64,000 bases of DNA from the NCBI GenBank assembly GCA_963747695.1, contig CAVVFV010000010.1, positions 133,618-197,617 of the forward strand, written 5' to 3'. This DNA comes from Candidatus Falkowbacteria bacterium (GTDB lineage Bacteria > Patescibacteriota > Patescibacteriia > Patescibacteriales > WJLG01). The notes under the pieces are model-generated. The model ran no database searches and had not been told where the DNA came from. It saw nothing but the letters and a program-made list of their open reading frames with translations. Every line of letters starts with the position of its first letter. The stretch's first letter is position 1. Shown here in pieces: positions 10,529 through 56,523 of this stretch. Both the position numbers and the translations under genes were made by a program.

Positions 10529-10535
10529 TTTTGTG

Positions 10536-10698: not shown

Positions 10699-10703
10699 AA
10701 ATT

Positions 10704-10768
10704 CAATTAAAAGTTAAAAATGAAAAATTACAAATAATTTTTAATTTTGCATTTTTAACTTTTAATTG
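10704..10768. repeat. Perfect 19-bp inverted repeat (CAATTAAAAGTTAAAAATG / CATTTTTAACTTTTAATTG) around a 27-nt loop
   Basis: Read directly. Confidence 0.8.
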
Positions 10769-10771
10769 ACT

Positions 10772-10847
10772 TGGTGCGCCCGGCAAGGATCGAACTCGCA
10801 GCCTCTTGGTCCGAAGCCAAGCGCTCTATCCATTGAGCTACGGGCGC
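10772..10847 (-). tRNA. tRNA-Arg (anticodon TCG), CCA encoded
   Basis: GCGCCCG/CGGGCGC acceptor, CTTGG-CTTCGGA-CCAAG anticodon arm, GCGAG-TTCGATC-CTTGC T arm, ACCA end. Confidence 0.9.
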
Positions 10848-11575: not shown

Positions 11576-11647
11576 GTAATTTTTTACCTTGGCAGTAAGC
11601 CCGTCCAGAACCACCCCCAAACCCCTCCTTCGAAAGGAGGGGAGCCA

Positions 11648-14479: not shown

Positions 14480-14560
14480 AATTTTTAGTTTTGAAAATTA
14501 ATTATTGATTAATAATATCCATACTTTATCAAATACGACCAAAGAAGTCAAAAAGAGACA

Positions 14561-14593
14561 AATGTTATATTGCTATATTGTTATATTGTCAAG
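14561..14593. repeat. Half-copy of the ATATTG-octamer palindrome family (TGTTATATTGCTATATTGTTATATTGTC)
   Basis: Same left arm as the elements at 22069, 31129, 36681 and 45696. Confidence 0.6.
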
Positions 14594-14650
14594 ATTGGCT
14601 GGATTTGTATAAAGTATTATGTATAATGTATGATGTATTAGGTATCTTGG

Positions 14651-22023: not shown

Positions 22024-22068
22024 ATGCTTATTTAACGCCAAGCTTTTTCTTACATTTTCTTGTCTTAA

Positions 22069-22157
22069 AATGTTATATTGTTATATTGTCATATTGTGGC
22101 GCAACGATTTAAAAACTTTTAACAATATAGCAATATAACAATATTGCAATATATTCC
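22069..22157. repeat. ATATTG-octamer palindromic element filling the infB-rbfA spacer
   Basis: TGTTATATTGTTATATTGTCATATTG-TGGCGCAACGATTTAAAAACTTTT-AACAATATAGCAATATAACAATATTGCAATATA. Confidence 0.8.
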
Positions 22158-22535
22158 ATGCCAAACATCGATCGCCTAAATGAAACTCTGCGCAAGGAGA
22201 TTGCGATGATCATCACCGAGGAAGTGGAAATCCCCGGCGGGTTGATCACTATCACTCATGTCGAATGCGATACCAATTTCTATTCGGCGCGCATTTTGTT
22301 TTCCGTCCTGCCGGATTCGCTGGTCGGCACGGCCTTGGAAAAATTAAGGAAGAATTCCAAGCTGATCGCCGAAGAATTGAAGCATCGCATCAAGATCCGC
22401 AAAATCCCGCATCTCATCTGGGAATTCGATCCCACCGAAAAGCAGGCCGGCGCCCTCGACAAGATATTCGCCGAAGCGGAAAAAGAAAAAAATACTCCGG
22501 ATGAAGAGTTGGCAGACATCAACTATAAATATTAA
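22158..22535 (+). CDS. rbfA: Ribosome-binding factor A
   Basis: RLNETLRKEIAMIITEEV..ITHVECDTNFYSARILFSV..IRKIPHLIWEFD; position after infB. Confidence 0.85.
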   Translation: MPNIDRLNETLRKEIAMIITEEVEIPGGLITITHVECDTNFYSARILFSVLPDSLVGTALEKLRKNSKLIAEELKHRIKIRKIPHLIWEFDPTEKQAGALDKIFAEAEKEKNTPDEELADINYKY

Positions 22536-29129: not shown

Positions 29130-29224
29130 GGAAATAAGGCCTGCGCGCAGTTTTTCTTGTCCCGTCATTTTTGCGGGATGTGCTACTTTTTTCTAAAAAA
29201 AGTGGCAAAGATTTTTGATAATAA

Positions 29225-29287
29225 TGTCGGGAATAGACCCTCCCCGCCTCGCAGGGCTCGGCACCCCTCCCGAGGAGGGGACTTTTT
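29225..29287. repeat. CCCCTC-hairpin element (family E) abutting the ftsH stop codon
   Basis: GTCGGGAATAGACCCTCCCCGCCTCGCAGGGCTCGGCACCCCTCCCGAGGAGGGGAC. An inverted copy lies at 34422-34513. Confidence 0.75.
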
Positions 29288-31118
29288 ACGCTTTCTTTCC
29301 AACTATGGCTTCGAATTCGTCTTTTTCCATCGTCTCCTTAATCATTAAGGCAGAGACGATCTTTTCCAAATCGGCTTTCTTAGTATTGAGAATCTCGACG
29401 GCGGTCTTAACCGCGGTGTTGATCAATTTACCCACTTCGCCATCGATCGCTTCGGAAGTTTTCTCGCTGTAATCACGGCCTTCGCGCATCTCGCGGCCCA
29501 AGAAAACTAATTCGTCGGAAGTGCCATAGGTGCGGATCGGCAAGTTATCGCTCATACCGTATTCAGTAACAATAGCCTTAGCGAGATCAGTTGCCGTGCG
29601 CAAATCCGAAGATGCGCCGGTGGTGACGTCGTTGAAGATTAATTTTTCCGCCATCCGTCCGGCAACGAGTACCGCCAATTCTTCGACGAATTCTTCTTTG
29701 GAATGCAAGCGGCGGTCTTCCATCGGCGTCTTCAAAGTATAGCCGGCGGCGCGACCTCTAGAGATGATCGAAATTTTTTGCACCGGATCGACGTTTTTCA
29801 AATTATGCGCAACCAGCGCATGGCCGGCTTCGTGATAGGCGGTTATTTTCTTCTCCCGGTCGGTGATAACGCGGCTTTTCCGTTCCGGACCGATCAAAAC
29901 TTTTTCGATCGAATCGAAAATCGTCTGCATCTTGATTTCTTTTTCGTCTTTCTTGGCAGTCGCGATCGCCGCTTCATTCAAAAGATTGGCCAAATCGGCG
30001 CCGGAAAAACCAGCGGTGCGCTCAGCGATCTTTTTCAAATCGACATCGGCGGACAGCGGCTTTTTTTCGGAATGGACTTTTAAGATCGCCTCTCTTTCTT
30101 TCAAATCCGGAATTTCCAAAACCACTTGGCGGTCAAAACGTCCCGGGCGCAGCAAGGCCGGATCCAAAACATCGGGACGGTTAGTCGCGGCAATGACGAT
30201 AATTTCCGTTTCCGAATCAAAACCGTCCATTTCCACCAAGATCTGATTCAAGGTCTGTTCGCGTTCGTCGTGGGAACCGCCCAACCCGGCACCGCGACGG
30301 CGGCCGACGGCATCGATTTCATCGATAAAGATTATGCAAGGCGCGGTTTTTTTCGCTTTATTAAATAAATCGCGGACACGGGAGGCGCCGACACCGACAA
30401 ACATTTCCACGAATTCTGAACCGGAAATATGATAGAACGGCACATTAGCTTCACCGGCCACGGCTTTAGCCATCAAAGTTTTGCCCGTCCCCGGGGCGCC
30501 GAGCAATAAAAATCCGCGAGGAATGCGCGCCCCGATCTCGCGGAATTTTTTAGGAAACTTTAAAAATTCAATCACTTCTTTCAATTCTTCCTTGGCTTCT
30601 TCTGAACCAGCCACGTCTTTGAAGGTGGTTTTATTCTTGGCGTCCTCGCGGAATTCCTTGGCTCCTGATTGCCCGAACATCATCGCTTTGGAATTGGCGC
30701 CGGCCACTGAACGCAGCATAAAATAGATCAGCACGCCGATGATCAAGGTCGGCAAAACTATCGGCAAAATAACCGATAACCAGTAATTAGAGCTCGAGCT
30801 GTTCTTGACTGTGATATTTATTTTTTCGATCTTATCCGGAGTGACGCCGTAATTTTTCAGCAAGTCGGACAAAGATTCACTGTCTTCCTTTTGGACGATC
30901 TTCACCGACTTGTCATTAAGCGTCTCGGTCACTTTTGTTCCCTCGACGACGATAGAAGCCACATTGCCGTTATTAATATCCTGCACCAGAGCGCCAATAT
31001 TTGAATCAGTGCTCGTCGGCTTGCTCATCAGGTTACCGCCGCCAAACAAACTGAAAATACCGGCCAAAACGAGGAACACGGCAAAAAAGATAATAAAATT
31101 TTTAATTAAATTTTTCAT
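29286..31118 (-). CDS. ftsH: ATP-dependent zinc metalloprotease FtsH
   Basis: Two N-terminal TM segments, Walker [12 protein letters not shown] region, HEAGHA zinc site. Confidence 0.95.
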
Positions 31119-31128
31119 ATTTATTATA

Positions 31129-31208
31129 TGGCTATATTGCTATATTGTTATATTGTTAAGCGATTTAAATCGTTGCGTAACAATATGACAATATGACAAT
31201 ATAACAAT
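31129..31208. repeat. ATATTG-octamer palindromic element 10 nt upstream of the ftsH start
   Basis: TGGCTATATTGCTATATTGTTATATTGTT-AAGCGATTTAAATCGTTGCG-TAACAATATGACAATATGACAATATAACAAT. Confidence 0.8.
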
Positions 31209-31304
31209 TTTATGTAACGCCCATATCATAACAAAAATAAGGGTTTTGTCAAAAAAAAGAGCCGCCGGTTTTGATTCCGACGGTTCAGCTTAAAAGTTTA
31301 GTCA

Positions 31305-33215: not shown

Positions 33216-34394
33216 CTATTTGATAAACATCGCGTCGCCATAACTGTAAAACCGATATTTTTTCTTAATCGCCTCTCGATAGGCGCGATCGATATTTTTC
33301 TTGCCGGCCAAAGCGGAAACTAACATCAATAAAGTCGATTTGGGCAGATGGAAATTGGTGATCATAGCATCGACGATCTTGAATTTATATCCCGGATAAA
33401 TAAAAATATCCACCCAATCCTTGAAGCCGCGTAGGCCCGCAATACTTTGCGGGCAGGCTTTTTCCTGCCAGCAGGCTTCCAAACTTCTCGCGCTTGTCGT
33501 TCCCACGGCGATTATCCGTGACCGCGGAACGCAAGGTATTGCGTTCCTACGATTTATTTCCGCGATAACCTTACCAACTATCTCTACCCACTCGGAATGC
33601 ATTTTATGTTCCAAGATATTTTCCGTCTTCACCGGCGCGAAAGTTCCCATTCCGACATAAAGCGTAATTTCCAAAATCTTCACGCCTTTTTTCTTAATCT
33701 TCTTCAAAAGCTCCGGCGTAAAATGCAACCCAGCCGTCGGCGCCGCCACGCTGCCGGCCTTATTATTAGCAGCATATACGGTTTGGTATTCTTGTTTGTC
33801 TTTTTCAATGATTCTCTCTTCTCTCTTATCTTTTCTCTGATTCTCTATATACGGCGGCAGCGGCACTTCGCCGATCTTTTCAATCGCTTTCATCAGCGCC
33901 GCGCCGGATTTATTGAATTGCAAATCCCAAGTACCATCATGATTATTCTTTAAAATGACGGCTGTCATCCTGAGCGGAGCGTCAGCGGAGTCGAAGGACC
34001 CCTTCGAAATTTTAGAAACTTTAAGTGGTTCCTCGACTTCGGCCGTGGCGGCCTTCGCTCGGAATGACAGATGTAAATTTTCGCTCACCCGGCCACCCAG
34101 TAAACACTGCCAAGTATTCGCGCTCAATTTTTTATGCAATAAAACTTCAACTTTCCCGCCGGTTTCTTTTTTCTTCGCCCACAGCCGCGCCGGAATGACT
34201 TTGGAATTATTCAATACCAAAATATCGCCCGGATTCAAATAATCGATGATATCAAAAAAATGCTTATGTTCGATCTTGCCCGTCTTCTTGTCCAGCACTA
34301 AAAGCCGCGAACTGTCTCGCGGCTCAGCCGGATGCGTGGCGATCAATCCATCCGGCAAATTAAAGTCGTAATCACTCAACTTCACGTAACGCAT
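33216..34394 (-). CDS. queA: S-adenosylmethionine:tRNA ribosyltransferase-isomerase, about 50 aa longer than typical because of in-frame repeat insertions
   Basis: YDFNLP..LIA..P...RD.SRLLV..; PLPPYI; GSVAAPTAGLHFT; IIAVGTTSARSLE; NFHLPKSTLLMLVSA. Confidence 0.9.
   Translation of the reverse strand: MRYVKLSDYDFNLPDGLIATHPAEPRDSSRLLVLDKKTGKIEHKHFFDIIDYLNPGDILVLNNSKVIPARLWAKKKETGGKVEVLLHKKLSANTWQCLLGGRVSENLHLSFRAKAATAEVEEPLKVSKISKGSFDSADAPLRMTAVILKNNHDGTWDLQFNKSGAALMKAIEKIGEVPLPPYIENQRKDKREERIIEKDKQEYQTVYAANNKAGSVAAPTAGLHFTPELLKKIKKKGVKILEITLYVGMGTFAPVKTENILEHKMHSEWVEIVGKVIAEINRRNAIPCVPRSRIIAVGTTSARSLEACWQEKACPQSIAGLRGFKDWVDIFIYPGYKFKIVDAMITNFHLPKSTLLMLVSALAGKKNIDRAYREAIKKKYRFYSYGDAMFIK
33963..34069. 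mobile_element. TGTCAT-terminated palindromic element (family B relative) inserted in frame inside queA
   Basis: TGTCATCCTGAGCGGAGCG..GTCGAAGGACCCCTTCGAA..GGTTCCTCGACTTCGGCC..GCCTTCGCTCGGAATGACA. Same termini and core as the intergenic copies at 55762-55871 and 56413-56523. Translated as ..RAKAATAEVEEPLKVSKISKGSFDSADAPLRMTA.. Confidence 0.75.
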
Positions 34395-34421: not shown

Positions 34422-34513
34422 AAAATCCCCTCTTGCCTGCCCCGCAAAGCGGAAGTGTGCGTGGGGGAGGGGTGACTCGCGCCGCGAGACGGGGAGGGTC
34501 TATTCCCGACATT
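34422..34513. repeat. Family E element (inverted relative to 29225-29287) between queA and the nuclease-like gene
   Basis: ..CCCCTCTTGCC..GGGGGAGGGGTGACTCGCGCCGCGAGACGGGGAGGGTCTATTCCCGAC. Confidence 0.7.
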
Positions 34514-35637: not shown

Positions 35638-36672
35638 TTAAAATAGTTTTTTATCTCTTCTCTCTTCTTTTTTATCTTTCTTCAAATGCTCATACGCGTG
35701 CGGCGTCGCGATGCGGCCGCGAGGGGAACGATCTAAAAAGCCGAGGCGGATGAGATAGGGCTCATAGACATCTTCAATCGTTTCCATTTCTTCGCCCGTG
35801 GCGGCGGCGATAGTATTGAGACCAACCGGTCCGCCGGCGAATTTATCAATAATGGTTGTTAATATTTTGCGATCCACCCAATCCAGACCGAGCTCGTCGA
35901 TTTCCAGCATGCCAAAAGCGTCGCGGCAAGTGTTGTCCGATAAGCAGCCATCGCCTTTGACGGCGGAATAATCGCGGACACGTTTTAGTAAGCGATTGGC
36001 AACTCTGGGCGTGCGGCGAGCGCGAGAAGCGATCGCTTTCAAAGCGGCCGGATCAATCTCTACGCCTAAAATCTTGGCCGAGCGTTCGACTATTTTTTCA
36101 ATATCTTTATCTTCGTAAAAATCCAAATGGTGATGATGGCCAAAGCGGTCGCGCAACGGCGCGGAAAGCATGCTGACTTTGGTGGTCGCGCCGATCAAGG
36201 TGAATCTAGGCAGATCAATGCGCACCGTGCGGGCGGCCGGACCTTTACCTAAAATAATATCCAGAGCATAATCTTCCATCGCCGGATACAAAATTTCTTC
36301 CACGGTTTTGTTCAAGCGATGGATTTCGTCGATGAACAGCACATCGCCTTCTTCCAAGTTTGATAGGATCGCCGCCAGGTCGCCGGATTTCTCAATCGCC
36401 GGGCCGGTGGTGACGCGGATGTTGGCACCCATCTCTTTCGCAATCAAATGCGCCAGCGTGGTTTTGCCTAAACCCGGCGCGCCATATAACAAAACATGCT
36501 CGATCGATTCCTTTCTCCCTTTCGCCGCCTGAATGGTAATTTCCAAACTATCCTTAACTTTATTCTGCCCGATATAGTCGGCAAATTTCTGCGGCCGCAA
36601 AGTCAAATCTAAAGAGTTGTCTTCTTTCTCCTCTTTTGGATTAATTATTCTATTAATCGATTCTTCTGGCAT
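35638..36672 (-). CDS. ruvB: Holliday junction branch migration helicase RuvB
   Basis: [27 protein letters not shown] winged helix. Confidence 0.95.
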
Positions 36673-36680
36673 GTTTCGTT

Positions 36681-36752
36681 AATGTTATATTGTTATATTG
36701 CTATATTGTTGCGCAACGAATTAAATAGTTTAACAATATAGCAATATAACAA
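36681..36752. repeat. ATATTG-octamer palindromic element filling the DUF4186-ruvB spacer
   Basis: AATGTTATATTGTTATATTGCTATATTGTT-GCGCAACGAATTAAATAGTTT-AACAATATAGCAATATAACAAT. Confidence 0.8.
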
Positions 36753-36753
36753 T

Positions 36754-37107
36754 TTAGCAATTTTCCAATATCCAACTCATTATTATATCAATAATATACC
36801 TATTTTCCTCATCGTTCAAGGCTCGGCCTTTTGGTATCTGGTGCCATTTTTCCAAACAGCCGCGGCAGCAGGTGGCCGTCGCATGTTGTCCGACGAAGAC
36901 CGGATGGCCGTGGAACGGAGTCTGCTTTCCGTCGTTTTTCGGTTCCGCTGGCACCAATCGTTCTTTAATAAATTCTTCCGCGTGCATTTTTATTTCTTCA
37001 ATCCCTTTCTTGTTGATATATTCCAAATTTTTCAGCTTCAACTTAAAACTTGAGCGAAACTTCGACTTGGCCAATCTGATTTTCAATTCTTCCCAACTTT
37101 TAAACAT
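36754..37107 (-). CDS. DUF4186-family protein
   Basis: HPVFVGQHATATCCRGCLEKWH motif, recalled from the family. Confidence 0.65.
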   Translation of the reverse strand: MFKSWEELKIRLAKSKFRSSFKLKLKNLEYINKKGIEEIKMHAEEFIKERLVPAEPKNDGKQTPFHGHPVFVGQHATATCCRGCLEKWHQIPKGRALNDEENRYIIDIIMSWILENC

Positions 37108-37767: not shown

Positions 37768-40700
37768 TTATAATTTCCTAAATTCGCAAATGCCGTTGTA
37801 GTCGCAGAATTTGCATTGCTGGCCGGGGGTCGCCGGAAATTCTCCCTTGCGGATCGCGCGGATAGTTTCAGAAATCTTTTCATCAAGCTTGGCGAAATCT
37901 TTTTCCTTGCCTAAAAATTCTATCTCGCTATTATCATTCAAATAGCGATAACAAAGCGCGCCGACTTCCTGACGGAATAATTCTTTCACGGCTTGCTGGT
38001 AAATCAATAATTGCGCTTTTTCATTGAATTCCAATTTCTCTTTGGGCTTGCCGGTTTTGTAATCAACAATCTTCAGCCTGCCATCGGGCATTTCGTCGAT
38101 GCGGTCTATTTTTCCGGCGATGGTGATCCCCTCGCCATCGATCTTCATTCGCAGGGCGAAAGCTTTTTCCAGAAACAGGACTTTCGGCCAATTATTTTTA
38201 TATTCTTCATAAAAAGCCTTGGTCATCTCTCTGCCTTTCTCGTGATATTTTTTCTTGTTGGCTTCGGTTTCATACCATTCGTCGATCCACGATTCTTCAT
38301 AAATTTTCAGGCAATCTTCCAGAGAAAGTAACACACCCCGGCCTTCGGCCACCACTCTTGATAGAGGGGAATTTTCTTTTTTATCAGCCGGAGAGACAAA
38401 TAAACTATCCTGCTTTTTTTCGCCGGCTTCTTTTACGGTTTGAAGGATTTTCTGCAAAGTTGAATGCATGGTCTTGCCGAAGGACATCTGGAAATTGCCG
38501 CGTTTGGGAACTCTTAAGATATTATCAAACCGATATTGATACGGGCAGCGTTCGTAAGCTTCAAATTGGGAATAGGAAAATCTTTCCGGCGCTTGAGGTA
38601 CCCAACTCCGCTCCGTGGCGGAGCTTCGCTGGGCAAGTCCGGCAATTTTTAATTTCTTTCCGCGCAACATTGAATTCTTATCTTCCAGCGGTTCGACCGC
38701 TTTTTCATCGGCATTGCTGATATCCAAATCTTCGGCTAATTTAGTTTCGACTAAAAATCTTGAAGCGCGTCGTTCGCGTTTCCCGCCGGCATCCGACGAC
38801 CAGGAAAAATAAATCCCTTTTTTGGCACGAGTAATCGCCACGTAAAACAACCGCCGTTCTTCTTCCAAGTGATGGTCGCCAGCGGGGATTATCTCGTCGA
38901 GCAAAGCATCAGGAATCTTGATTGACTCAGAACGCTCAATCGATGGAAATCGCTTATCGATTAAATTTATGACAAAAACGTATTTGAATTCCAAACCTTT
39001 GGCGGCGTGCACGGTCATGATTTTGATCATCGCCGGGTCTTCTTCGTCGCTCAAAGGCAATGTCCCCTGCTCGCCGGCTTCCATCTCGACCGCTAGTCCG
39101 GCCAAAAATTCCCGCACTGATTTATCGGTCGAGCTGGTCTCAAATTCCTTGATCCGCTTCATGAATTGATTAAGCTGGTTAGTCGCCAAAATCTGCTGCC
39201 GCTCCGGCTGGGCATATAGATATTTCAAATACCCGGTGTCTTCGAGAAAATCCGAAAATATTTCCGAGGCCGGTTTATAGCGCGCATCCGCGGCGTGCTT
39301 GCGGAAAATTGCCAAAAATTTGTTGATCTTTTCCAAGGTTGCGCTGCCCAAACCCAGCGCTGAAGCTTCATTCAAGACTTTATAGAGCGACATGGCTTTG
39401 CGCGAAACGATATAATTCATCGCCGCCAATTCTTCGGCGGTAAAATTGAAAACCGGCAAAGTCAAAACTTTATACAAAGCCACGCCGTCATATTGGTCGG
39501 CCACGGCAGTCAGATAACTGATTGAATTGATAATCGGTATTGCCGCGTAAAGTCCGCGAGAAGAAAATAATTTATAAGGAAACTGCGCCTCGTCCAGATA
39601 GACGCAAATTTCCTTGCCCGCGTCATTAGATCTAGCCATAATCGCAAAGTCTCCCCAATTCGCCTCTTTGTCCTCAGTTTTTAGTTCGGCAATTTTCTTG
39701 ACCACCCGAACCATCTCATCGGCGGTATCGGCGCCGCGAATCACTTCAATCGAACCAGCATCTTTAAAATTCGCTTTTAATTTCTTAGATAATTTATCAC
39801 CGTCGTTCTTCAATTGCTCCTCTAGGCGGTTGGGATTATTCAATTTGATAAAATCATAGGCCAGATCCAAAATATTCTGCCGGTTGCGGTAATTCTCAAT
39901 CAAAAAAACCTGTTTGGCGTCAGGGTAATCTTTTTTGAATTCCAAAATATTGGCCATGGCCGCGCCGCGGAAGCGGTAGATCGCCTGGTCATCGTCGCCG
40001 ACGACCGTAATATTATTTTGCGGGGCAGCCAATAATTTCACCAGTTCATATTGCGCCCAATTCGTATCCTGGAATTCATCGACTAGAATATATTTGAACC
40101 TGGTTTGATAGCGCGCCAACACATTCGGCCGCTCGCGGAAAAGCTTAAGGCAATAATTGATCAGATCGCCAAAGTCCAGCGCATTATTTTCCAACAATAA
40201 ATTTTGGTAGATATGAAAAGCATTGGCCACTTCCTCAATCTTTTTAACTTCGAATTCCGCCACTTCCTGATCGAATTCACCTTTGGCATTAAGAAAATCT
40301 GCCGTAGGCGCGCAATGCTTCGTGGGTCCGCAATGCTTTGCGTACCGGTCTTCTTCACTGCTTTTCGGAACGCAAGGTATTGCGTTTCTACGTCCGCTTA
40401 GCATCCCGTCCAGATTCTGCCGCAGCTCTTCGGCATATTCCAAATATTTCAACGGCGTGATGTCTTCGTCTTTGCAACGGGAAAAATGCTTGAGCAAGTC
40501 GCGGATGAATTTGGTCGGGTTGCCCATCGGCCGATAATAATCCAGGCCGAACCGGTCCAGATGTTTCTTGAACAAAGCATACTGCTGATATTCGTCGAGC
40601 AATTTATAATCGGTCGGCAAACCGATATCTAAACCGGCTTCAGTCAAAACATCCTGGCAGAAAGAATGGAAAGTGGAAATCGACAAATCAAAAAAAGCGC

Positions 40701-40935
40701 CATAAGGCAACAGCCGATCAACGCGTTCCTCCATTTCGCCGGCCGCTTTTTCGGTAAACGTCAACGCTAAAATCTCTTCGGACTTGGCTTTGCCCGAGTC
40801 GATCAAACCGACGATCCTCTCTGAGATTACGCTGGTCTTGCCTGTGCCAGCGCCGGCCACGATCAATAATGGCCCTTCACCAAACTGAACCGCTTCGGCT
40901 TGCTCTTTATTTAATTGGTTTTTCTTCATTTCCAT
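37768..40935 (-). CDS. UvrD/PcrA-type superfamily-1 helicase fused to a C-terminal PD-(D/E)XK (Cas4/AddB-like, 4-Cys) nuclease domain
   Basis: GAGTGKT, LVDEFQDTN, VGDDDQAIYRFRGA, TVHAAKGLEF, YVAITRAK. C-terminus: CPYQYRF..DRID..VDYKTGK..CKFCDYNGIC. Confidence 0.85.
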   Translation of the reverse strand: MEMKKNQLNKEQAEAVQFGEGPLLIVAGAGTGKTSVISERIVGLIDSGKAKSEEILALTFTEKAAGEMEERVDRLLPYGAFFDLSISTFHSFCQDVLTEAGLDIGLPTDYKLLDEYQQYALFKKHLDRFGLDYYRPMGNPTKFIRDLLKHFSRCKDEDITPLKYLEYAEELRQNLDGMLSGRRNAIPCVPKSSEEDRYAKHCGPTKHCAPTADFLNAKGEFDQEVAEFEVKKIEEVANAFHIYQNLLLENNALDFGDLINYCLKLFRERPNVLARYQTRFKYILVDEFQDTNWAQYELVKLLAAPQNNITVVGDDDQAIYRFRGAAMANILEFKKDYPDAKQVFLIENYRNRQNILDLAYDFIKLNNPNRLEEQLKNDGDKLSKKLKANFKDAGSIEVIRGADTADEMVRVVKKIAELKTEDKEANWGDFAIMARSNDAGKEICVYLDEAQFPYKLFSSRGLYAAIPIINSISYLTAVADQYDGVALYKVLTLPVFNFTAEELAAMNYIVSRKAMSLYKVLNEASALGLGSATLEKINKFLAIFRKHAADARYKPASEIFSDFLEDTGYLKYLYAQPERQQILATNQLNQFMKRIKEFETSSTDKSVREFLAGLAVEMEAGEQGTLPLSDEEDPAMIKIMTVHAAKGLEFKYVFVINLIDKRFPSIERSESIKIPDALLDEIIPAGDHHLEEERRLFYVAITRAKKGIYFSWSSDAGGKRERRASRFLVETKLAEDLDISNADEKAVEPLEDKNSMLRGKKLKIAGLAQRSSATERSWVPQAPERFSYSQFEAYERCPYQYRFDNILRVPKRGNFQMSFGKTMHSTLQKILQTVKEAGEKKQDSLFVSPADKKENSPLSRVVAEGRGVLLSLEDCLKIYEESWIDEWYETEANKKKYHEKGREMTKAFYEEYKNNWPKVLFLEKAFALRMKIDGEGITIAGKIDRIDEMPDGRLKIVDYKTGKPKEKLEFNEKAQLLIYQQAVKELFRQEVGALCYRYLNDNSEIEFLGKEKDFAKLDEKISETIRAIRKGEFPATPGQQCKFCDYNGICEFRKL

Positions 40936-43057: not shown

Positions 43058-43130
43058 TCTTCTTACTTCTTACTTCTTACTTCTTACTTCTTACTTCTTA
43101 CTTCTTACTTCTTACTTCTTACTTCTTACT
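43058..43130. repeat. Heptanucleotide microsatellite, (TCTTACT) x10.4, equal to (GAAGTAA)n on the minus strand
   Basis: Counted 10 exact units across 43061-43130. The last unit contains the final Lys codon and the TAA stop of the DUF4340 gene. Confidence 0.95.
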
Positions 43131-44034
43131 TCAAATCCGTCATCTTCTTATCCAGCGCGTCGCGATCGGTTTTGGAAATCAAGTAAATGTCGTCGTTAGC
43201 CGCTGACTTGGCGTAGCAGAGATTGTCTTTGGTACAGTCGCCGATCATGATCGTATCGTCAAAATCTCCGCCTGTAACCTGGACGATGATGCTATGCTTT
43301 TCCAAACCGGTGTTGGTAAAAGTCTGGGCGGGAATCTTCACCGCCGTCAAATTTTGCAATACGCTTAACACCGCGTCAATCTTGGTCGCATCGACGTCGA
43401 ATTTCTTCGGCTGGGTGCCAGTCCACTGGTTGGCGATCTGTTCGACGGTAAATTGCCGGTCAGGATATTGGAAGCGGATCTTCTCGCTGCGTTCCTTCAT
43501 AAAAGAAAAGATGGTCAGGCTGCGCCAATCGCTGCGGCCGAAAATGCTGTTCAAATCCAAAGCGATCGAAAAAGTCTTGCTGGAATCCGGCTCGGCGATG
43601 TAGGTGCCGGAGTAATCGGGCGTCGTGGTGCCGACCACAAAATCAAAAGTCTGCCGGCCTTGTTCGATCTCGACCTTAATTCCCTGACCATCGGTACCGA
43701 AAGAACTTTTTTTATCAGCGTTGGTGCTGACCGTTTCGATCGGCAAAACGCCGATTTCATTCAGCGCCGAGTCCAAGGCGCCGGCGGCGGTATTGTCCAC
43801 GCTGAAATTTTTCACGCCGGCGATCGCCCAACCATCGGCGGTTTTGTCCAATTCGGTTTTCTGCCCGTTATTATCGATCGAGATCTTTTTAATTTGCGCC
43901 AAAGAGACGGCGGCCAGAAAATTCTTTTCCTGCCCTTTGGTTTTTTTCCAGTCAGCCAGCGGTCCGCTCCAGATCCAAGCAAAAGCGACCAGTAATATCA
44001 AAATTCCTCCCAGGATTAAATTCTTTTTAGACAT
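43126..44034 (-). CDS. DUF4340-like protein (N-terminal TM), a usual partner of GldG-type ABC accessory proteins
   Basis: N-terminal anchor LILGGILILLVAF. Operon position downstream of the GldG-like gene. Confidence 0.65.
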   Translation of the reverse strand: MSKKNLILGGILILLVAFAWIWSGPLADWKKTKGQEKNFLAAVSLAQIKKISIDNNGQKTELDKTADGWAIAGVKNFSVDNTAAGALDSALNEIGVLPIETVSTNADKKSSFGTDGQGIKVEIEQGRQTFDFVVGTTTPDYSGTYIAEPDSSKTFSIALDLNSIFGRSDWRSLTIFSFMKERSEKIRFQYPDRQFTVEQIANQWTGTQPKKFDVDATKIDAVLSVLQNLTAVKIPAQTFTNTGLEKHSIIVQVTGGDFDDTIMIGDCTKDNLCYAKSAANDDIYLISKTDRDALDKKMTDLK

Positions 44035-44078: not shown

Positions 44079-45680
44079 TTATACTGTTGTCAAATTAACC
44101 GCGGCCGGCGCGGTTTTCTTGTCCCGGCGGCGCAGGAAATACCGGGCAACGCCGAACACGAGGACGATTACGGTAACGCCAAAGATGTTCAGATAGCGCA
44201 TCGTTTCTTTGGCCGCGGTGGACGGCAAAGTTATCGGCCGTTCCGTCGCGGTCTTGGCGCGGATATTGATCAAATCGGAATCCAAAGACAAGCCGTCGAC
44301 CAGGTTCTGGAAGAAAAGCATATTGTCCGAACCGTCACCCGTGAACATATCGGTGGCAAAATCGGAGTCGCCCACCAAAACAATCCTGGCTTTATCCGTT
44401 GATCCGGCGCCGAAAGCGCTGGTCACTTTGCCCGAAACATATACCGCCAGATCATATTGGCCGGATTTGCCGCTGGCATTCGCGGCGGCTTGCGGATCAA
44501 GGACGAAACTATCCGTTTCGGCCAAGCTGTCACTAGTAGATTTGGCCAGGTAAACGACGTTTTCGCCGGCCTTCGGCGTTACGTCAATACTTGATACCCA
44601 AGGAAAAATTATGCTCTGCAGATTGGCGACGATCACATTGGATTTATCCATATTGTTCGGCAAAATTTTCGGCCAAAGCGGATAATTTATCATATACGTC
44701 ATGCTGTAACCGCCGCTCGTGGAAGAAAAAGACGCCCGGCCGTTGGAAGAAGCATCGGCGATCAAATCATTATTAAGCTGCAAACCGTAAGCGGATAATA
44801 ATTTACTCAAGCCCAGATCATTTTTCGTCGCCCCCATTCCCTTGGCCACTGTCACGCCATCAGCCAGAAGGATCAGCGACTTGCCTTTCATCACGAACGC
44901 ATCGATCTTTTTCAATTCATCGTCGGTGAATTTATCCTGCGGACCGACGATCAGCAATGTGCTGACATCATCGGTGATCTGATCTTTAGCCAGATCGATA
45001 TTCTTGACCTCGTAAAGGTCGCTGAGTTTGGCATAAGCCTGCGTCATCAAGGTGTCGCCCGAGTTCGGATCGCCGGTGGTCGGCACAGTCTTGTTGCTGG
45101 TCACCAGGCCGATGACCGGCAAATTTTTTCCGGCTAATTTTTTGATATCGGAAGTGACCTGATATTCCAGATTCGAGGTATCGCTCACCACCGGGATGAC
45201 TTCGGTCTTGCCGCCATACTGCAAAACGATCCCCAGATAGCCGTTGACGACCTGGTAAGAATCATTGCGCATCACATTGAACTGCAAAGTCGGAATGCCC
45301 TTGGCCGCCAATTCGTTGGAGGCGTCTTTCAAGGTAGCCGGATCAATCATTTGCACTTTTATTTTCCCGTTGGAATAGCTGGAGTATTCAGCCAACAGAT
45401 CACTGACTTGCTGCTGCAAATCCAAATATTGCGCGGGCAGATTCTTGCTGAAATAAGCCTTAATATTGACAACATCGTCAAGATTGGCGGCGGTTTTTTT
45501 GCTGGCGGTCGACAAAGAGTAATCACCGTTGGCAGTCAGATCCCAGCGGAAATGTAACTGGCTGAAAATAAAATTAATAACAAGCAAGAGACCGATAATA
45601 ATAACAATTGTAATAAAATTATCACCTTGCTTTGGCAGCTTCCACGCCCTGATCCGTTTCGTTATATCGAAAAATTTCAT
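44079..45680 (-). CDS. GldG-like ABC-transporter auxiliary protein (N- and C-terminal TM anchors)
   Basis: Architecture and position after the ABC-2 permease. NIKAYFSKNLP-type N-terminal region. Confidence 0.7.
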   Translation of the reverse strand: MKFFDITKRIRAWKLPKQGDNFITIVIIIGLLLVINFIFSQLHFRWDLTANGDYSLSTASKKTAANLDDVVNIKAYFSKNLPAQYLDLQQQVSDLLAEYSSYSNGKIKVQMIDPATLKDASNELAAKGIPTLQFNVMRNDSYQVVNGYLGIVLQYGGKTEVIPVVSDTSNLEYQVTSDIKKLAGKNLPVIGLVTSNKTVPTTGDPNSGDTLMTQAYAKLSDLYEVKNIDLAKDQITDDVSTLLIVGPQDKFTDDELKKIDAFVMKGKSLILLADGVTVAKGMGATKNDLGLSKLLSAYGLQLNNDLIADASSNGRASFSSTSGGYSMTYMINYPLWPKILPNNMDKSNVIVANLQSIIFPWVSSIDVTPKAGENVVYLAKSTSDSLAETDSFVLDPQAAANASGKSGQYDLAVYVSGKVTSAFGAGSTDKARIVLVGDSDFATDMFTGDGSDNMLFFQNLVDGLSLDSDLINIRAKTATERPITLPSTAAKETMRYLNIFGVTVIVLVFGVARYFLRRRDKKTAPAAVNLTTV

Positions 45681-45695
45681 ATTTTTAAATTATTA

Positions 45696-45790
45696 AATGT
45701 TATATTGTTATATTGTTACTCAACGAATTTGATTACTCGGCGCATTTTTTTCACAACGCAACAATATGACAATATATCAATATGGCAATT
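45696..45790. repeat. ATATTG-octamer palindromic element filling the permease-GldG spacer
   Basis: AATGTTATATTGTTATATTGTTACTCAACGAATTT..CACAACGCAACAATATGACAATATATCAATATGGCAAT. Confidence 0.75.
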
Positions 45791-45795
45791 TTATA

Positions 45796-46530
45796 CTATC
45801 GCCACGCCCGTTTCTGAATAACCTGCGCGTTGAGCCAGAGGAATAAGAAAATAAAAGTCAGGTAATAAACGATATCTTGAGAATCGATCACGCCGCGGGC
45901 AATACTGTCAAAATGCGTGCCCAATCCCAGAAAGGCGAAGACGGGGGCGATAGCGGGCGGCGCTACCTGGAGGACAAAGCTGGAACCGACGATCAGCGCC
46001 GCGAAACAAGCGACTAAGCCGAGTACGAAAGCGATGATCTGATTGCGGGTCAGCGCCGACAGGAAAAGCCCAAGCGACAAATAAGCGCCGGCCAAGAAGA
46101 TCGATCCCAGATAACTGCCGATCAGCGGACCGAAATCCAGCCGGCCCAGGAAAGAAATGGAAACCGGAATGGTAAAAGTCAAAGCCAGGGCGATGATCAT
46201 AAAACATAAAGCGCCCAAAAATTTAGCCAGCACGGCTTGCCAGGTGGTGATCGGCAAGGTCAGCAGAAATTCGATCGTGCCGGATTTTTTTTCTTCCGCC
46301 CAAAGCCGCATTGTTACGGCCGGCGAGAGAAATAAGAAAATCCAGGGCAGCAGCGCGAAATATTCGCGCATGCTCGCTTCCTGATAAATGAAAAAATTCT
46401 GGAAGAAAAGCCAGTTGCCGGCCACCAAAAACACCGCAATGAATATGTAGGCGATCGGGGAATTGAAATAGGACATCAGCTCCTTCTTAAATAAAGTCCA
46501 GATTATTTTGAAATATTGTTTATTATTCAT
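45796..46530 (-). CDS. ABC-2 type transporter permease (GldF-like)
   Basis: Six hydrophobic segments. Position downstream of the ATPase. Confidence 0.8.
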   Translation of the reverse strand: MNNKQYFKIIWTLFKKELMSYFNSPIAYIFIAVFLVAGNWLFFQNFFIYQEASMREYFALLPWIFLFLSPAVTMRLWAEEKKSGTIEFLLTLPITTWQAVLAKFLGALCFMIIALALTFTIPVSISFLGRLDFGPLIGSYLGSIFLAGAYLSLGLFLSALTRNQIIAFVLGLVACFAALIVGSSFVLQVAPPAIAPVFAFLGLGTHFDSIARGVIDSQDIVYYLTFIFLFLWLNAQVIQKRAWR

Positions 46531-50651: not shown

Positions 50652-50660
50652 AGATATTTA

Positions 50661-50712
50661 ATTCCCCTCTTGGGAGGGGTGTCTGCCCCGCACGGACGGG
50701 GTGGGTTTATTG
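50661..50712. repeat. Family E element
   Basis: TTCCCCTCTTGGGAGGGGTGTCTGCCCCGCACGGACGGGGTGGGTTT. Confidence 0.7.
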
Positions 50713-50719: not shown

Positions 50720-51469
50720 TTATTTAAAAAACTTTTTTATCTTCCGCCAGAATTGCGGCTTGATCGAGTTGCGAGCGGAAAGATGACCGCCCTTCTTTAA
50801 ATATAGGTGTTGGCAGCCAAGGTCTTTAACGAACTTTTTCACTGATGGCGTACTGATAAGCTTATCGTCATTAGCTTGAATTATGAAAATATTTTTGGCG
50901 TTCAATTTTTTTACGACCGAAGCCGGATTATATATTTTACCTTCTTCTAATTTTTTCCAATCGCGGTGATCAAACCGGTATCCTTCGCCGAAGGCCGCAC
51001 GGGTGAATTTTTCCAGCCAAGGCATCGGTTCGATTTTACTATGCACTTCTTCGCGCCAATCAACCACAGGCGAAAACGCCACGGCCTTTTTAACTTTCGG
51101 ACTCTGCGAGGCCAAGATGACCGCCGGTCCGCCGAAACTTGAACCGATCAAATAAACCTGCGGCTTCTTTATCTGCAAAACTTTGCCGCTCCACAAATCC
51201 TTAAAACCTTTCGGCAGTTCTTCAATAATATCCAAGATATCCTGATGCGGTGACACTCGCAAAAACTTTCCGCCGCTCTCCCAGGTCCCGCGATATCTCG
51301 GCAAGAACGCCCAATAGGCTCGCTTAGCCAGCCAAAAAAGCATTTCATCACTTCTGCCCGGATAGCCAGGCATGCCGCCGCAAACAATCACCACCTTATT
51401 CGATCTCTTCTTAGGAGCAACAAACTCGCAGATAATATCTTTCTTAATTCTAGTTCTCAATGTATACAT
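50720..51469 (-). CDS. Alpha/beta hydrolase (dienelactone hydrolase / peptidase S9-like)
   Basis: Nucleophile elbow GSSFGG. The start was moved to ATG 51469 (MYTLRT) because the track's N-terminal 43 aa read through a family E repeat. Confidence 0.75.
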   Translation of the reverse strand: MYTLRTRIKKDIICEFVAPKKRSNKVVIVCGGMPGYPGRSDEMLFWLAKRAYWAFLPRYRGTWESGGKFLRVSPHQDILDIIEELPKGFKDLWSGKVLQIKKPQVYLIGSSFGGPAVILASQSPKVKKAVAFSPVVDWREEVHSKIEPMPWLEKFTRAAFGEGYRFDHRDWKKLEEGKIYNPASVVKKLNAKNIFIIQANDDKLISTPSVKKFVKDLGCQHLYLKKGGHLSARNSIKPQFWRKIKKFFK

Positions 51470-51477
51470 AAATTTAA

Positions 51478-51524
51478 GTCCCCTCTTGAGAGGGGTGGCC
51501 GAAGGCCGGGGTGTGTGAAGATTT
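51478..51524. repeat. Family E element (reverse orientation) directly 3' of the DUF559 gene
   Basis: CCCCTCTTGAGAGGGGTGGCCGAAGGCCGGGGTGTGTGAAGATT. Confidence 0.75.
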
Positions 51525-51947
51525 TCAAAGGCGCGGACTATTTTTACCCATCCAATCCTTAATCTCCTCGACAATCGCCCAACGGGCATTTTTAACATTG
51601 CTATCTGTAAACCGCAAGAATCTTATTCCCAATTTTTCCAATTCCCTCTGGCGAATTTCATCTTCAATTTCTTTATATCCGTGCGAATCACCATCGATCT
51701 CGATCGCCAGCCGCAATTCGTCGCAGAAAAAATCGACAATATAATTTCCCATTGGCTTCTGCCGGTGAAAATTATAACCGCGGATTTTTCTCTGTTTCAA
51801 CTCCTGCCAAAGCAGTATTTCGGCCAAGGTGCTATGTTTTCTCAAATTACGCGCCAGCTGTTTCAATTTTGGATCGTATTTGATCAATAATTTTGTTTTT
51901 CTTATCCCCCTCCTTATTAATAAATTATATTTCCCGCCGCTTCCCAA
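51525..51947 (-). CDS. DUF559 (Vsr-like PD-(D/E)XK) endonuclease-domain protein; start codon uncertain (TTG in track)
   Basis: LRKHSTLAEILLWQELK..GYNFHRQKPMGNYIVDFFC..LAIEIDGDSH..R...L...G...LRF. Confidence 0.8.
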   Translation of the reverse strand: MGSGGKYNLLIRRGIRKTKLLIKYDPKLKQLARNLRKHSTLAEILLWQELKQRKIRGYNFHRQKPMGNYIVDFFCDELRLAIEIDGDSHGYKEIEDEIRQRELEKLGIRFLRFTDSNVKNARWAIVEEIKDWMGKNSPRL

Positions 51948-52083
51948 TCTTCACACACCCCGTCAGTCCGCGGCGGACTGCCACCCCTCTCTAGAGGGGA
52001 CTTTTTCCGACGCCGGTTTCTTCGTTGCGAAGTCCCCTCTGGAGAGGGGTGCCGAGCCCGGCGAGGCGGGGTGTGTGAAGATG
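51945..52083. repeat. Two family E elements in head-to-head arrangement (51945-52005 forward, 52030-52083 reverse)
   Basis: AATCTTCACACACCCCGTCAGTCCGCGGCGGACTGCCACCCCTCTCTAGAGGGGAC ... AAGTCCCCTCTGGAGAGGGGTGCCGAGCCCGGCGAGGCGGGGTGTGTGAAGAT. Confidence 0.8.
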
Positions 52084-55129: not shown

Positions 55130-55300
55130 GATCTTCACACACCCCGTCCGCGCGGCGCGGCCACCCCTCTCAAGAGGGGAATTTTACTTGTCATTGCGAG
55201 CGCCTCGCGAAGCAGTCTCGCCCTGACTGCGTCTGCTCTTGGGCAGGACATATTAGCCGCGAGGCGCGGGTTTGCTTCGTCGCTAATCGCTCCTCGCATA
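55130..55300. repeat. Composite of a family E element (55130-55186) and a TGTCAT-terminated element of the GCGAGCG type (55189-55300)
   Basis: GATCTTCACACACCCCGTCCGCGCGGCGCGGCCACCCCTCTCAAGAGGGGAA, then TGTCATTGCGAGCGCCTCGCGAAGCAG..CCGCGAGGCGCGGG..CGCTCCTCGCA. Confidence 0.7.
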
Positions 55301-55761: not shown

Positions 55762-55871
55762 TGTCATTCCGACCGAGCACGCCGCGTGCGAGCGGAGGAA
55801 CCGCTTCGAGTTATTTAAAACTTTAAGGGGTCCTTCGACTGCGGCCGAGGCGGCCTTCGCTCAGGATGACA
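55762..55871. repeat. TGTCAT-terminated palindromic element, family B, filling the grpE-hsp20 spacer
   Basis: TGTCATTCCGACCGAGCACGCCGCGTGCGAGCGGAGGAACCGCTTCGAG..CTTTAAGGGGTCCTTCGACTGCGGCCGAGGCGGCCTTCGCTCAGGATGACA. Confidence 0.85.
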
Positions 55872-56412: not shown

Positions 56413-56523
56413 TGTCATTCCGACCGAACGCGCCGCGCGTGAGCGGAGGAACCGCTTCGAGTTTTTTAAAAACTTTAAGGGGTCCTTCGACTGCGGCCGC
56501 GGCGGCCTTCGCTCAGGATGACA
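56413..56523. repeat. TGTCAT-terminated palindromic element, family B, filling the hrcA-grpE spacer
   Basis: About 95% identical to 55762-55871 by eye. Confidence 0.85.

Follow-up and report, generated by a model that had tools for sequence, protein, structure and literature searches.

The window analysed here, a 64,000-nt stretch of DNA from a Candidatus Falkowbacteria bacterium, contains a small gene for a DUF559 nuclease that is flanked on its two sides by a short palindromic repeat, named the E module, in inverted orientation. This bracketing of a Vsr-like nuclease gene, proposed in the initial annotation of the window, was borne out, and the arrangement is kept in 83 loci from more than 12 phyla. 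The recurrence of the cassette, together with scattered gene-less modules, suggests an undescribed nuclease-and-repeat partnership like that of REP and RAYT. We place at about even chances the reading that this locus belongs to a widespread type of cassette, in which a nuclease gene is joined by its partner repeat in a REPtron-like organisation with an unrelated enzyme. The organisation of the cassette resembles REP/RAYT more closely than an IS with MITEs. Briefly, the locus consists of one gene and three module copies:

51525..51887, minus strand: DUF559 (Vsr-like PD-(D/E)XK) nuclease gene, 120 aa plus a TGA stop; the maximal ORF reaches a TTG at 51947
51476..51524, plus strand: E module copy A, abutting the DUF559 stop codon, tail towards the gene
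51945..52005, minus strand: E module copy B, inverted relative to A, tail towards the gene, 58 nt ahead of the likely start of DUF559
52030..52083, plus strand: E module copy C, same sense as A, 26 nt from B, between DUF559 and dnaK

All three repeat copies previously placed around the ORF were recovered at their positions. The inverted copy had also been described as overlapping the 5' end of the gene, which was not upheld: the coding sequence 51525-51887 was chosen after the 99%-identical P0001, called as 120 aa, so that copy B, about 58 nt upstream, does not overlap the gene. Three elements make up each E module: the palindrome hp1 (CCCCTCT..AGAGGGG), hp2, which is a variable GC hairpin, and the tail GGGGTGTGT. 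The consensus has a 16-bp hp1 (CCCCTC..GAGGGG), an optional and hypervariable hp2, and a conserved tail (GGGGTG[T/G]GT) that sets the polarity; hp1 is preceded by AAGT or AATT and followed by TGG. The parts of copy A are, in order, hp1 CCCCTCTTGAGAGGGG, hp2 GGCC-GAA-GGCC, and the tail GGGGTGTGTGAAGATT. Copies A and B have a 16-nt palindrome and a 16-17-nt tail in common and differ in the middle hairpin, and their arms show 83-85% pairing over 26-36 nt. As single-stranded DNA, copy B folds with -13.4 kcal/mol (z = -3.9). Furthermore, B and C form a head-to-head doublet (51945-52083), a large hairpin with a fold of -54.3 kcal/mol (z = -9.9). Other copies of the module are distributed along the window:

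55131..55183, minus strand: solo copy D, 15-nt tail GGGGTGTGTGAAGAT identical to those of A, B, and C; between a 257-aa ORF and hsp20
50660..50712, plus strand: solo copy with the diverged tail GGGGTGGGTTTATT; between a hydrolase gene and a 190-aa ORF
29223..29285, minus strand: solo copy whose tail, GGGGAGGGTCTATTCCCGACATT, belongs to a second subfamily; directly after the stop codon of ftsH
34422..34513, plus strand: solo copy of the second tail subfamily, hp1 loop expanded; between queA and a 370-aa ORF
38329..38373, minus strand: copy in a helicase ORF, in-frame insert NSPLSRVVAEGRGV; missed in the first reading
37768-40935, minus strand: UvrD/AddA-like helicase-nuclease ORF of 1055 aa, holding the 38329..38373 module
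11598..11645, minus strand: short-form variant without hp2, ACCACCCCCAAACCCCTCCTTCGAAAGGAGGGGA; adjoining the RNase Y stop codon
4352..4392, plus strand: 5'-truncated remnant (GGGTG, hp2, GGGGTATTTT) resembling the 50660 copy, judged by eye only

The solo copies that had been listed near 29225, 34422, 50661, and 55130 are real, with the boundaries given above. The two partial copies listed at 4338 and 11590 fared differently: the latter is the short-form variant, which matches a form common in other phyla, and the former is only the truncated remnant. The motif CCCCTCTNNAGAGGGG has five matches in the window against a shuffled expectation of 0.03, and GGGGTGTGTGAAGAT has four exact matches against 0.92 expected with up to three mismatches. 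Most long spacers (hp2) fold as hairpins with a mean z of -2.5 (triloops GAA in 15, GCA in 4, GGA in 3, and GTA in 3), and some, such as GCCGAGCCCKGCGAGGC in copy C and in the 29223 copy, have no hairpin fold; hp2 is therefore usually, but not always, a hairpin. No Rfam covariance model reached the gathering score in the window and eight repeat loci, and the sub-threshold matches were generic long-hairpin (miRNA precursor) models only. In four E copies, including A (on the minus strand), B, and D, hp1 and a T-rich run are terminator-like. Since this combination resembles an intrinsic terminator, part of the conservation could reflect an expression role. The T tract is absent from many E copies, several copies lie inside ORFs, and the sequence is conserved across phyla.

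The assignment of the ORF to the Vsr-like PD-(D/E)XK endonucleases was confirmed by profile and structure comparisons. On the Pfam PF04480 (DUF559) profile, the protein scores 103.3 bits (curated cut-off 20.6; E = 8.6e-30), and PDB profile searches matched 3hrl at 1e-23 and the homing endonuclease I-Bth0305I (3r3p) at 0.004. Its AlphaFold model (pLDDT 84) retrieved 3hrl (2.5e-8), 3r3p (6e-4), and Vsr itself (1vsr, 1.2e-2) in Foldseek, and the protein is accordingly predicted to adopt the Vsr-type alpha/beta nuclease fold. D52, E63, D65, H69, D76, and Q80 are invariant in 16 sequences and are candidate active-site residues. The 120-aa protein is essentially the catalytic domain alone. An equivalog relationship to E. 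coli YcjD (NCBIfam PRK09767) was rejected (70 bits against a cut-off of 218), as was a defence system, for which PADLOC gave only weak matches to the nuclease domain. The gene is under purifying selection, with dN/dS of 0.08-0.12 for the window gene against its orthologues and 0.01-0.2 in 11 orthologous DUF559 pairs.

Besides the window, the gene-first survey of 83 DUF559 loci took in its two closest relatives, L002 and L003, together with 80 contigs from genomes. These contigs represent Bacteroidota, Ignavibacteriota, Chlorobi, Thermotogae, Thermodesulfovibrionia, Planctomycetota, Verrucomicrobia, Cyanobacteria, Firmicutes, Patescibacteria, Cloacimonadota, Desulfobacterota, and others. The module is enriched 189-fold close to DUF559, with a density of 5.2 per kb up to 150 nt from the gene and 0.027 per kb at distances over 2 kb, and at least one tailed module lies within 150 nt of the gene in 71 of the 83 loci. 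The polarity is fixed, with the tails facing the gene: upstream modules are F rather than R in a ratio of 58:6 (p = 9e-12), and downstream modules are R rather than F in a ratio of 42:7 (p = 4e-7). The R-F-gene-R layout of the window recurs in many phyla, and tandem module arrays beside DUF559 show mirrored polarity on its two sides. DUF559 genes at 37-43% identity have modules that are spelled differently and follow the same hp1-hp2-tail plan. In many cassettes the gap between module and start codon is too small for a promoter. Many DUF559 proteins end in HTPNPSQEGN, a translated module, and some open frames continue from DUF559 across modules into ispG, queG, and a PLP enzyme. A viral vector for the cassette was rejected, as viral contigs hold only distant DUF559 relatives (at most 45% identity), some of them with analogous modules.

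The repeat-first survey started from the module itself and found 114 copies in 80 metagenome loci. Of these copies, 81 stand alone, 25 are found at the edge of a contig, and 8 are next to DUF559 (about 9% of the assessable copies). DUF559 is the sole protein family that recurs beside the module in this search. Doublets within 100 nt occur head-to-head (12) and tail-to-tail (10) in these metagenome loci, which also contain gene-less F-R pairs of 100-130 bp that are MITE-like. The closest homologues of the helicase ORF of the window, P0121 and P0122, lack the module, and P0123 carries it with a different hp2. The homologues without the module are 79-83% identical, and this copy is an insertion polymorphism.

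The two ends of the cassette evolve in concert. Ends of the same locus are more alike (0.744) than ends of different loci (0.656), a difference reached in none of 5000 permutations, and the two ends consist of identical 26-28-mers in four loci (L058, L079, L067, and L073). The similarity of two paralogues in a single Pontibacter genome stops about 10 nt beyond the hp1 on either side, and in another pair of loci (L010 and L055) the 38-nt upstream module is identical although the dS of the gene is 1.8. Across Bacteroidales, Brocadiaceae, Cytophagales, Flavobacteriaceae, Ignavibacteriales, and Cloacimonadota, cassettes are found at orthologous positions. Such persistence across whole orders indicates vertical inheritance for long periods and rare movement of the gene. 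DUF559 is present in one or a few copies, and the modules of a given genome differ from each other in hp2, which gives no sign of a recent burst.

The initial annotation had interpreted the locus as a nuclease-driven mobile element with MITE derivatives and had pointed to empty sites and target-site duplications as checks. Part of this interpretation stands, namely the inverted bracketing, the concerted ends, the MITE-like gene-less pairs, and the one insertion polymorphism. Against it are the vertical inheritance, the lack of a recent burst, and the nearest upstream module of L002 and L003, which is direct rather than inverted. Both checks came out negative. BLAST of the cassette flanks against all fetched loci gave only occupied orthologous loci and no empty site. 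No consistent direct repeat was found outside hp1 in the Pontibacter paralogues, the helicase insert, or the gene-less pairs, where the flanks only lengthen the palindrome by 3-6 nt; for the helicase insertion, the alignment is ambiguous with respect to a target-site duplication, because the site falls within an A-rich linker that varies.

We infer that the DUF559 nuclease recognises and cuts the module and thereby spreads modules. In this model, the nuclease would bind hp1 as a dimer, as its homologue I-Bth0305I, a dimer cutting a pseudopalindrome, does on its own target (PMC3239194), and the tail would be read for polarity. It would then nick or cut at hp1, either in duplex DNA or in a hairpin or cruciform extruded from single-stranded DNA, and host repair, replication, or recombination would copy or relocate the modules. 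Such copying may yield the singlets, the head-to-head doublets, the tail-to-tail MITE-like pairs, and the tandem arrays beside the gene. Strand transfer is, to our knowledge, beyond a hydrolytic PD-(D/E)XK nuclease acting alone, and host functions would therefore be required for mobility. The cassette of about 0.5 kb could occasionally move or be transferred as a unit, because the gene lies between two inward-facing modules, and would mostly be inherited vertically as a resident, selected gene. Only tentatively, and with clearly less confidence than in the partnership itself, we propose that the DUF559 cassette is a new minimal class of mobile element of about 0.5 kb, in which a Vsr-like nuclease as the sole protein recognises palindrome-plus-tail ends and moves or copies them via host repair, giving rise to dispersed palindromic repeats. 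If this is true, it would be a second, enzymatically unrelated system of the REP/RAYT type and would provide a function for about 21,000 protein clusters. In some lineages, such a cassette may also lock itself in through an in-frame connection to an essential gene (ispG, queG).

The closest known system is the REPtron, which combines a RAYT (TnpA-REP) gene with REP/REPIN repeats (PMC3733652). In both, the enzyme gene is single-copy and vertically inherited and has a short palindromic repeat on its two sides in inverted orientation, and the same repeat is dispersed as singlets and as head-to-head doublets with long hairpins. In both, most copies are found at gene 3' ends and an occasional one within a repair gene, with no target-site duplication (PMC3733652). 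In contrast, the enzyme of the cassette is Vsr-like PD-(D/E)XK whereas RAYT is an HUH Y1 transposase, and the three-part E module lacks a GTAG or CGTC tag by its palindrome. Membership in the GTAG/CGTC REPs was rejected, as neither tag is conserved at the hp1 flanks. The E spelling is common to several phyla, whereas REPs are lineage-specific. An IS with MITEs has in common with the cassette the terminal inverted repeats (28-60 bp) around one gene and the gene-less 100-130 bp pairs with the same ends. The cassette differs in having no DDE, serine, or tyrosine transposase, no target-site duplication, and no families of near-identical copies, and in the persistence of the gene at orthologous loci over long evolutionary spans; we also know of no autonomous IS as small as about 0.5 kb. 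The palindromes tolerated in frame (the helicase insert and the DUF559 frames into ispG, queG, and the PLP enzyme) recall Rickettsia palindromic elements (RPEs) and REPs in coding sequences. The RPE sequences are unrelated to the E module, and we know of no enzyme partner of RPEs. Integron attC or Xer pdif modules were set aside because the module is linked to no gene other than DUF559 and does not resemble such sites in sequence.

The kinship with EDxHD and Vsr nucleases, which share the catalytic fold and detectable sequence similarity with DUF559, leads to a reading that we hold to be unlikely, in which DUF559 is a free-standing homing endonuclease and a homing-type selfish gene, and the E modules are its pre-existing, dispersed targets rather than its products. 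A module would be cut and repaired from a gene-bearing copy, with the module halves as homology arms, and the gene would thereby be copied between two modules. Several observations agree with this route. The sequence and fold of DUF559 are akin to those of the EDxHD homing endonuclease I-Bth0305I, the palindrome of hp1 suits a dimeric nuclease, gene-less tail-to-tail F-R pairs would offer homology on both sides, and no target-site duplication is expected. The loops of hp1 are also sometimes expanded (L019 compared with L017, and the 34422 copy of the window), which fits a central cut with imprecise repair, and the conserved palindrome flanking DUF559 is a candidate cleavage target. However, insertion restores an intact hp1 on both sides, while homing normally destroys its target. 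The DUF559 gene has no intron or intein context and is bracketed by repeats that also stand alone, and its 120-aa product lacks the separate N-terminal DNA-binding region of I-Bth0305I. Genomes carry one or a few of these genes, at orthologous loci where they are fixed; among these loci no pair of occupied and empty alleles was found, and every orthologous locus examined was occupied, with no homing into an empty allele seen. The spread of the modules themselves, including the copy inside a coding sequence, is also left unexplained. Vsr acts with Dcm on T:G mismatches, and no Dcm or T:G mismatch context was seen at the cassette.

The terminator-like copies point to another reading, which we consider improbable, namely that gene and modules serve the host. 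The modules would have a structural or regulatory role in DNA or RNA, for example as outward-facing terminators, insulators, or mRNA stabilisers, and would spread by other means. DUF559, in this case a housekeeping nuclease, would process hairpins and cruciforms or keep them in check, with the flanking copies acting as its expression signals or autoregulatory sites and co-transferred with the gene. The terminator-like form of A, B, and D, the solo copies at the 3' ends of the housekeeping genes ftsH and RNase Y, the strong purifying selection and long vertical inheritance of DUF559, and the many cassettes without room for a promoter between module and start codon are all in line with it. A terminator, however, has no role for the tail, and terminator sequences are not conserved across phyla as hp1 and the tail are. 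Modules in frame within ORFs and the many copies missing a T tract also speak against this reading, which leaves the tandem arrays with mirror polarity and the MITE-like pairs unexplained. Finally, a chance placement of the E copies near the ORF, as ordinary terminators rich in GC or as palindromes of low complexity, would fit the simple terminator pattern of some copies; this reading has a negligible probability and is effectively refuted by the 189-fold enrichment at DUF559 with fixed polarity in the 83 loci, the concerted evolution of the two ends, and motif counts far over the shuffled expectation.

DUF559 is a very large family without an assigned function, with 20,983 clusters at 50% identity (E <= 0.001). 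Many families of short palindromic repeats have no known enzyme partner, for example CGTC-tagged and untagged REP-like repeats (PMC3733652). No prior description of an association between DUF559 and repeats was found in the literature on DUF559, hp1 and the tail, Vsr-like nucleases with inverted repeats, or YcjD. The polar, conserved, cross-phylum linkage of nuclease and module provides a concrete and testable hypothesis for both the function of DUF559 and orphan repeats. If the REPtron-like partnership is true, a second class of enzyme would have entered the lifestyle of a repeat with a domesticated nuclease, and a small dimeric nuclease with a defined recognition module of about 30 bp would be at hand. 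The peptide tails HTPNPSQEGN and PLERG in predicted proteins would then be explained as translated repeats. For annotation, modules that are open in frame distort the start and stop calls of DUF559 and its neighbours.

The ORF at 51525-51947 (minus strand) of the window encodes a DUF559 nuclease (PF04480, E = 9e-30); a 99%-identical database protein of 120 aa is called from the TTG at 51887. It is surrounded by E modules, repeats composed of a palindrome (hp1), a hairpin (hp2) and a tail. In the copies at DUF559, hp1 is a near-perfect 16-bp palindrome, CCCCTCTnnAGAGGGG, preceded by AAGT or AATT, hp2 is a GC-rich hairpin after TG with a different sequence in every copy, and the tail is CGGGGTGTGTGAAGAT. 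We name the hp1-to-tail orientation F and its complement R. The following copies were located.

E modules in the window
51476-51524, copy A, directly after the TGA stop of DUF559
51945-52005, copy B, inverted relative to A, 58 nt upstream of the likely DUF559 start
52030-52083, copy C, inverted relative to B, 26 nt beyond B
55131-55183, tail identical to that of A, B and C
50660-50712, diverged tail
29223-29285, second tail subfamily, GGGGAGGGTCTATTCCCGACATT
34422-34513, second tail subfamily, GGGGAGGGTCTATTCCCGACATT
38329-38373, in frame within a helicase-nuclease ORF
11598-11645, short form without hp2
near 4352, remnant

The inverted bracket proposed in the initial annotation is thus present, although copy B does not overlap the 5' end of the gene as had been stated. 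The dispersed copies reported near 29225, 34422, 50661 and 55130 were recovered, as were the partial ones at 4338 and 11590, whereas the copy at 38329-38373 had been overlooked. Read in the direction of DUF559, copies C (R) and B (F) precede the gene and copy A (R) follows it, with the tails of both B and A pointing towards DUF559. Five hp1 matches (0.03 expected by chance) and four exact tail matches (0.92 expected) occur in the window. Folded as single-stranded DNA, each copy forms both hairpins, and the B+C doublet forms a single long hairpin (-54 kcal/mol, z = -9.9). Many hp2 loops are G-N-A triloops with a C-G closing pair (GAA 15, GCA 4, GGA 3, GTA 3; at 51498-51508 in the window and at many loci), a motif known from exceptionally stable DNA mini-hairpins, which hints at a function in single-stranded DNA. 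The centre of hp1 is a repeated site of 15-30-nt insertions that leave the arms intact (L017 versus L019 downstream module, window 34427-34472, L031, L065 and L069), as frequent breakage and repair there would yield. The two copies of the second subfamily share an identical 23-nt tail variant and, with their hp1 ends inward, bracket a 5.2-kb block of ftsH, ribosomal protein S1 and queA; no second DUF559 matching this tail was found in the window. Downstream of DUF559, the frame of an alpha/beta-hydrolase gene (50720-51598, minus strand) is open backwards through copy A, where it reads HTPRPSATPLKRGLKF, to an ATG within the DUF559 3' end. The gene caller took this ATG as the start on contig L001 (284 aa, 50-nt overlap with DUF559); the true start is likely the ATG at 51469.

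The two closest relatives, metagenome contigs L002 and L003, carry a DUF559 gene about 77-79% identical in the same dnaK...DUF3467-dnaJ neighbourhood, and the gene content between dnaK and DUF3467 differs among the three genomes. E module clusters surround the gene in both contigs (five upstream and three downstream in L003). The nearest upstream copy is in R orientation in both, so what this lineage conserves is a gene within a cluster of E modules, not the exact inverted bracket. A scan with a DUF559 alignment, one genome per species, gave 80 loci from more than 12 phyla at 52-67% protein identity, and inspection of the flanks revealed an E module at almost all of them. The upstream plan is (AAGT)CCCCTC..GAGGGG, TTA or hp2, GGGGTG[T/G]GT, ending 5-120 nt before the start codon. 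The downstream plan is ACACACCCC, TAA or hp2, CCCCTC..GAGGGGA(A/C)TT; this module often overlaps the DUF559 C-terminus, which accounts for the HTPNPSQEGN-type tails of database DUF559 proteins. Over 83 loci (these 80, the window, L002 and L003), a simple detector found tailed modules at 5.2/kb within 150 nt of the gene and 0.027/kb beyond 2 kb, a 189-fold difference. Upstream modules are mostly F (58 F, 6 R; p = 9e-12) and downstream ones mostly R (42 R, 7 F; p = 4e-7). At least one tailed module lies within 150 nt in 71 of the 83 loci, and several of the others have variant spellings missed by the detector. Chlorobi, Thermodesulfovibrionia, Runella, Brocadiaceae and others also show the R-F-gene-R layout found in the window. 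In some Bacteroidales, up to six F copies are arrayed upstream of the gene, with arrays of R copies downstream.

DUF559 and the modules at its ends behave as a single unit. F and R modules are more alike within a locus (identity 0.744) than between loci (0.656; none of 5000 permutations as high), and in four loci they are identical 26-28-mers. Spelling variants travel with the gene: Pontibacter ramchanderi has CCCCTTGAGGGG...GGGGTGT, a variant found elsewhere in Flavobacteriaceae, and other Pontibacter species have the spelling CCCCTCTTGAGAGGGG...GGGGTGTGT. Two paralogues in one Pontibacter genome share similarity across the stretch from the upstream to the downstream hp1 and for about 10 nt beyond it at either end, but no further out. 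DUF559 is under purifying selection (dN/dS 0.01-0.2, 11 pairs), and at a gene dS of 1.8, where synonymous sites are saturated, L010 and L055 still have the same 38-nt F module. More distant DUF559 genes (37-43% identity; viral-collection contigs L084-L091) have differently spelled modules on the same hp1-hp2-tail plan, for example GCTCCCCC..GGGGGAGC, TG, TCAGCC-GCA-GGCTGA, CTGAGAGGG, which suggests a separate cognate repeat for each DUF559 clade. In 10 of 12 loci from three lineages (L005, L021, L041 and L066 in Bacteroidales; L018, L022 and L034 in Cytophagales; L067, L068 and L073 in Flavobacteriaceae; gene at about 10001 in each), the DUF559 frame lacks a stop codon and continues across the R modules downstream into a housekeeping gene, namely ispG/GcpE, queG or that of a PLP-dependent enzyme; where the housekeeping protein would normally begin, no methionine is seen. 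This could be a real N-terminal fusion or a means of making the cassette (gene plus bracketing modules) undeletable.

Modules also occur without the gene. A metagenome scan with the pattern CCCCTCT-N(2-4)-AGAGGGG-N(2-30)-GGGGTGTGT gave 114 copies in 80 loci among the matches listed, comprising 81 solo copies whose tail side could hold a gene but has none, 25 at contig edges and 8 adjoining DUF559 in the expected polarity. When all ORFs adjoining these copies were clustered, DUF559 was the only recurrent protein family, and no alternative driver (RAYT or other transposase) was evident among the matches listed. The metagenome loci contain at least 12 head-to-head doublets within 100 nt and at least 10 tail-to-tail F-R pairs 18-45 nt apart; the latter are 100-130-bp units with ends as in the cassette and no gene. 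The copy at 38329-38373 reads NSPLSRVVAEGRGV in frame within a 1055-aa UvrD/AddA-type helicase-nuclease. The nearest homologues, at 83% and 79% identity, are missing precisely this segment; a third close one carries at that position a module whose hp2 differs, and more distant ones have none. DNA alignment places the insertion, of 42-45 nt, in an A-rich linker with no clear target-site duplication; likewise, no direct repeat flanks the tail-to-tail pairs, where the palindrome is merely extended by 3-6 nt. In a related genome (L111 1-2229), gene calling breaks the helicase-nuclease gene that has a module at this site into ORFs of 770 and 242 aa, with the break close to the module; the gene may be disrupted by the insertion, or the call may be wrong.

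The cassette moves slowly. BLAST of its flanks revealed orthologous positions in Bacteroidales (6 loci), Brocadiaceae (6), Cytophagales (3), Flavobacteriaceae (3), Ignavibacteriales (2) and Cloacimonadota (2), at 68-97% flank identity, all occupied and none empty, and the different hp2 in every window copy gives no sign of a recent burst. The initial annotation had envisaged a selfish mobile element with MITE-like derivatives; a conserved unit with gene-less relatives does exist, but its mobility is slow. This picture, of a gene long resident and under selection beside numerous old copies of its repeat, agrees with descriptions of RAYT/REPIN and not with an active IS. Defining features of a DDE-type IS with MITEs are lacking, as neither such a transposase nor a target-site duplication was found.

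Among known systems, the REPtron, a RAYT gene with its REP/REPIN repeats, is organised most similarly; it uses an HUH transposase instead of a PD-(D/E)XK Vsr-like nuclease, and its repeats carry the GTAG or CGTC tag that E modules lack. We give roughly an even chance to a REPtron-like model in which DUF559 acts on E modules. The modules may also be transcription terminators, since hp1 followed by A(C/A)TTTT was flagged as terminator-like in four copies, each time reading out of the cassette; this role cannot explain why the sequence is conserved across phyla, nor does it account for the tail, the copies lying in frame or the arrays in mirror image, and Rfam gave no match to E modules. Homing, in which the DUF559 gene invades modules, would likewise have the enzyme act on them and adds a small further share of probability; the regeneration of an intact hp1 at each end and the lack of empty alleles weaken it, and the intron or intein and DNA-binding domain of EDxHD homing endonucleases are absent here. 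We rate the partnership of nuclease and palindromic repeat as a kind already known, in a new version with a Vsr-like enzyme; a categorically new class of minimal mobile element is less likely than not, with an appreciable chance. The literature searched, one collection and hence not proof of novelty, held no description of DUF559 with flanking repeats or of the hp1 sequence.

The Vsr-like assignment of the protein holds. A profile search of PDB sequences matched 3hrl, a Neisseria DUF559 protein (1e-23), and the I-Bth0305I catalytic domain (0.004), and the AlphaFold model (pLDDT 84) resembles 3hrl, I-Bth0305I, PvuRts1I and Vsr. I-Bth0305I forms a stable dimer and cleaves a pseudopalindromic site (PMC3239194), so given the kinship in fold, recognition of hp1 by a DUF559 dimer would be a reasonable proposal. 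The family comprises 20,983 clusters at 50% identity (E <= 0.001).

Other repeats were observed in the window. Arrays of the octamer TTATATTG / CAATATAA, in inverted pairs around short spacers, occupy five intergenic sites (14544-14619, 22044-22168, 31110-31213, 36664-36766 and 45663-45796); they are a family separate from E and possibly a binding-site array. An 82-nt repeat, GAGTCGAAGGACCCCTTCGA...GGCCTTCGCTCGGAATGACA, has three copies (33988-34069, 55790-55871 and 56442-56523), two of them within about 700 nt of E copies. Five tandem 208-bp units, four identical and each with the 41-nt palindrome ACAAAAATAAAAATCACCCAGAGGGTGATTTTTATTTTTGT, lie at 9352-10483 beside tRNA-Lys, tRNA-Met and tRNA-Arg (10333-10847). 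Six tandem repeats of about 273 bp (61-88% identity) span 438-2230, and 43059-43135 is a perfect tandem array of the heptamer CTTCTTA.
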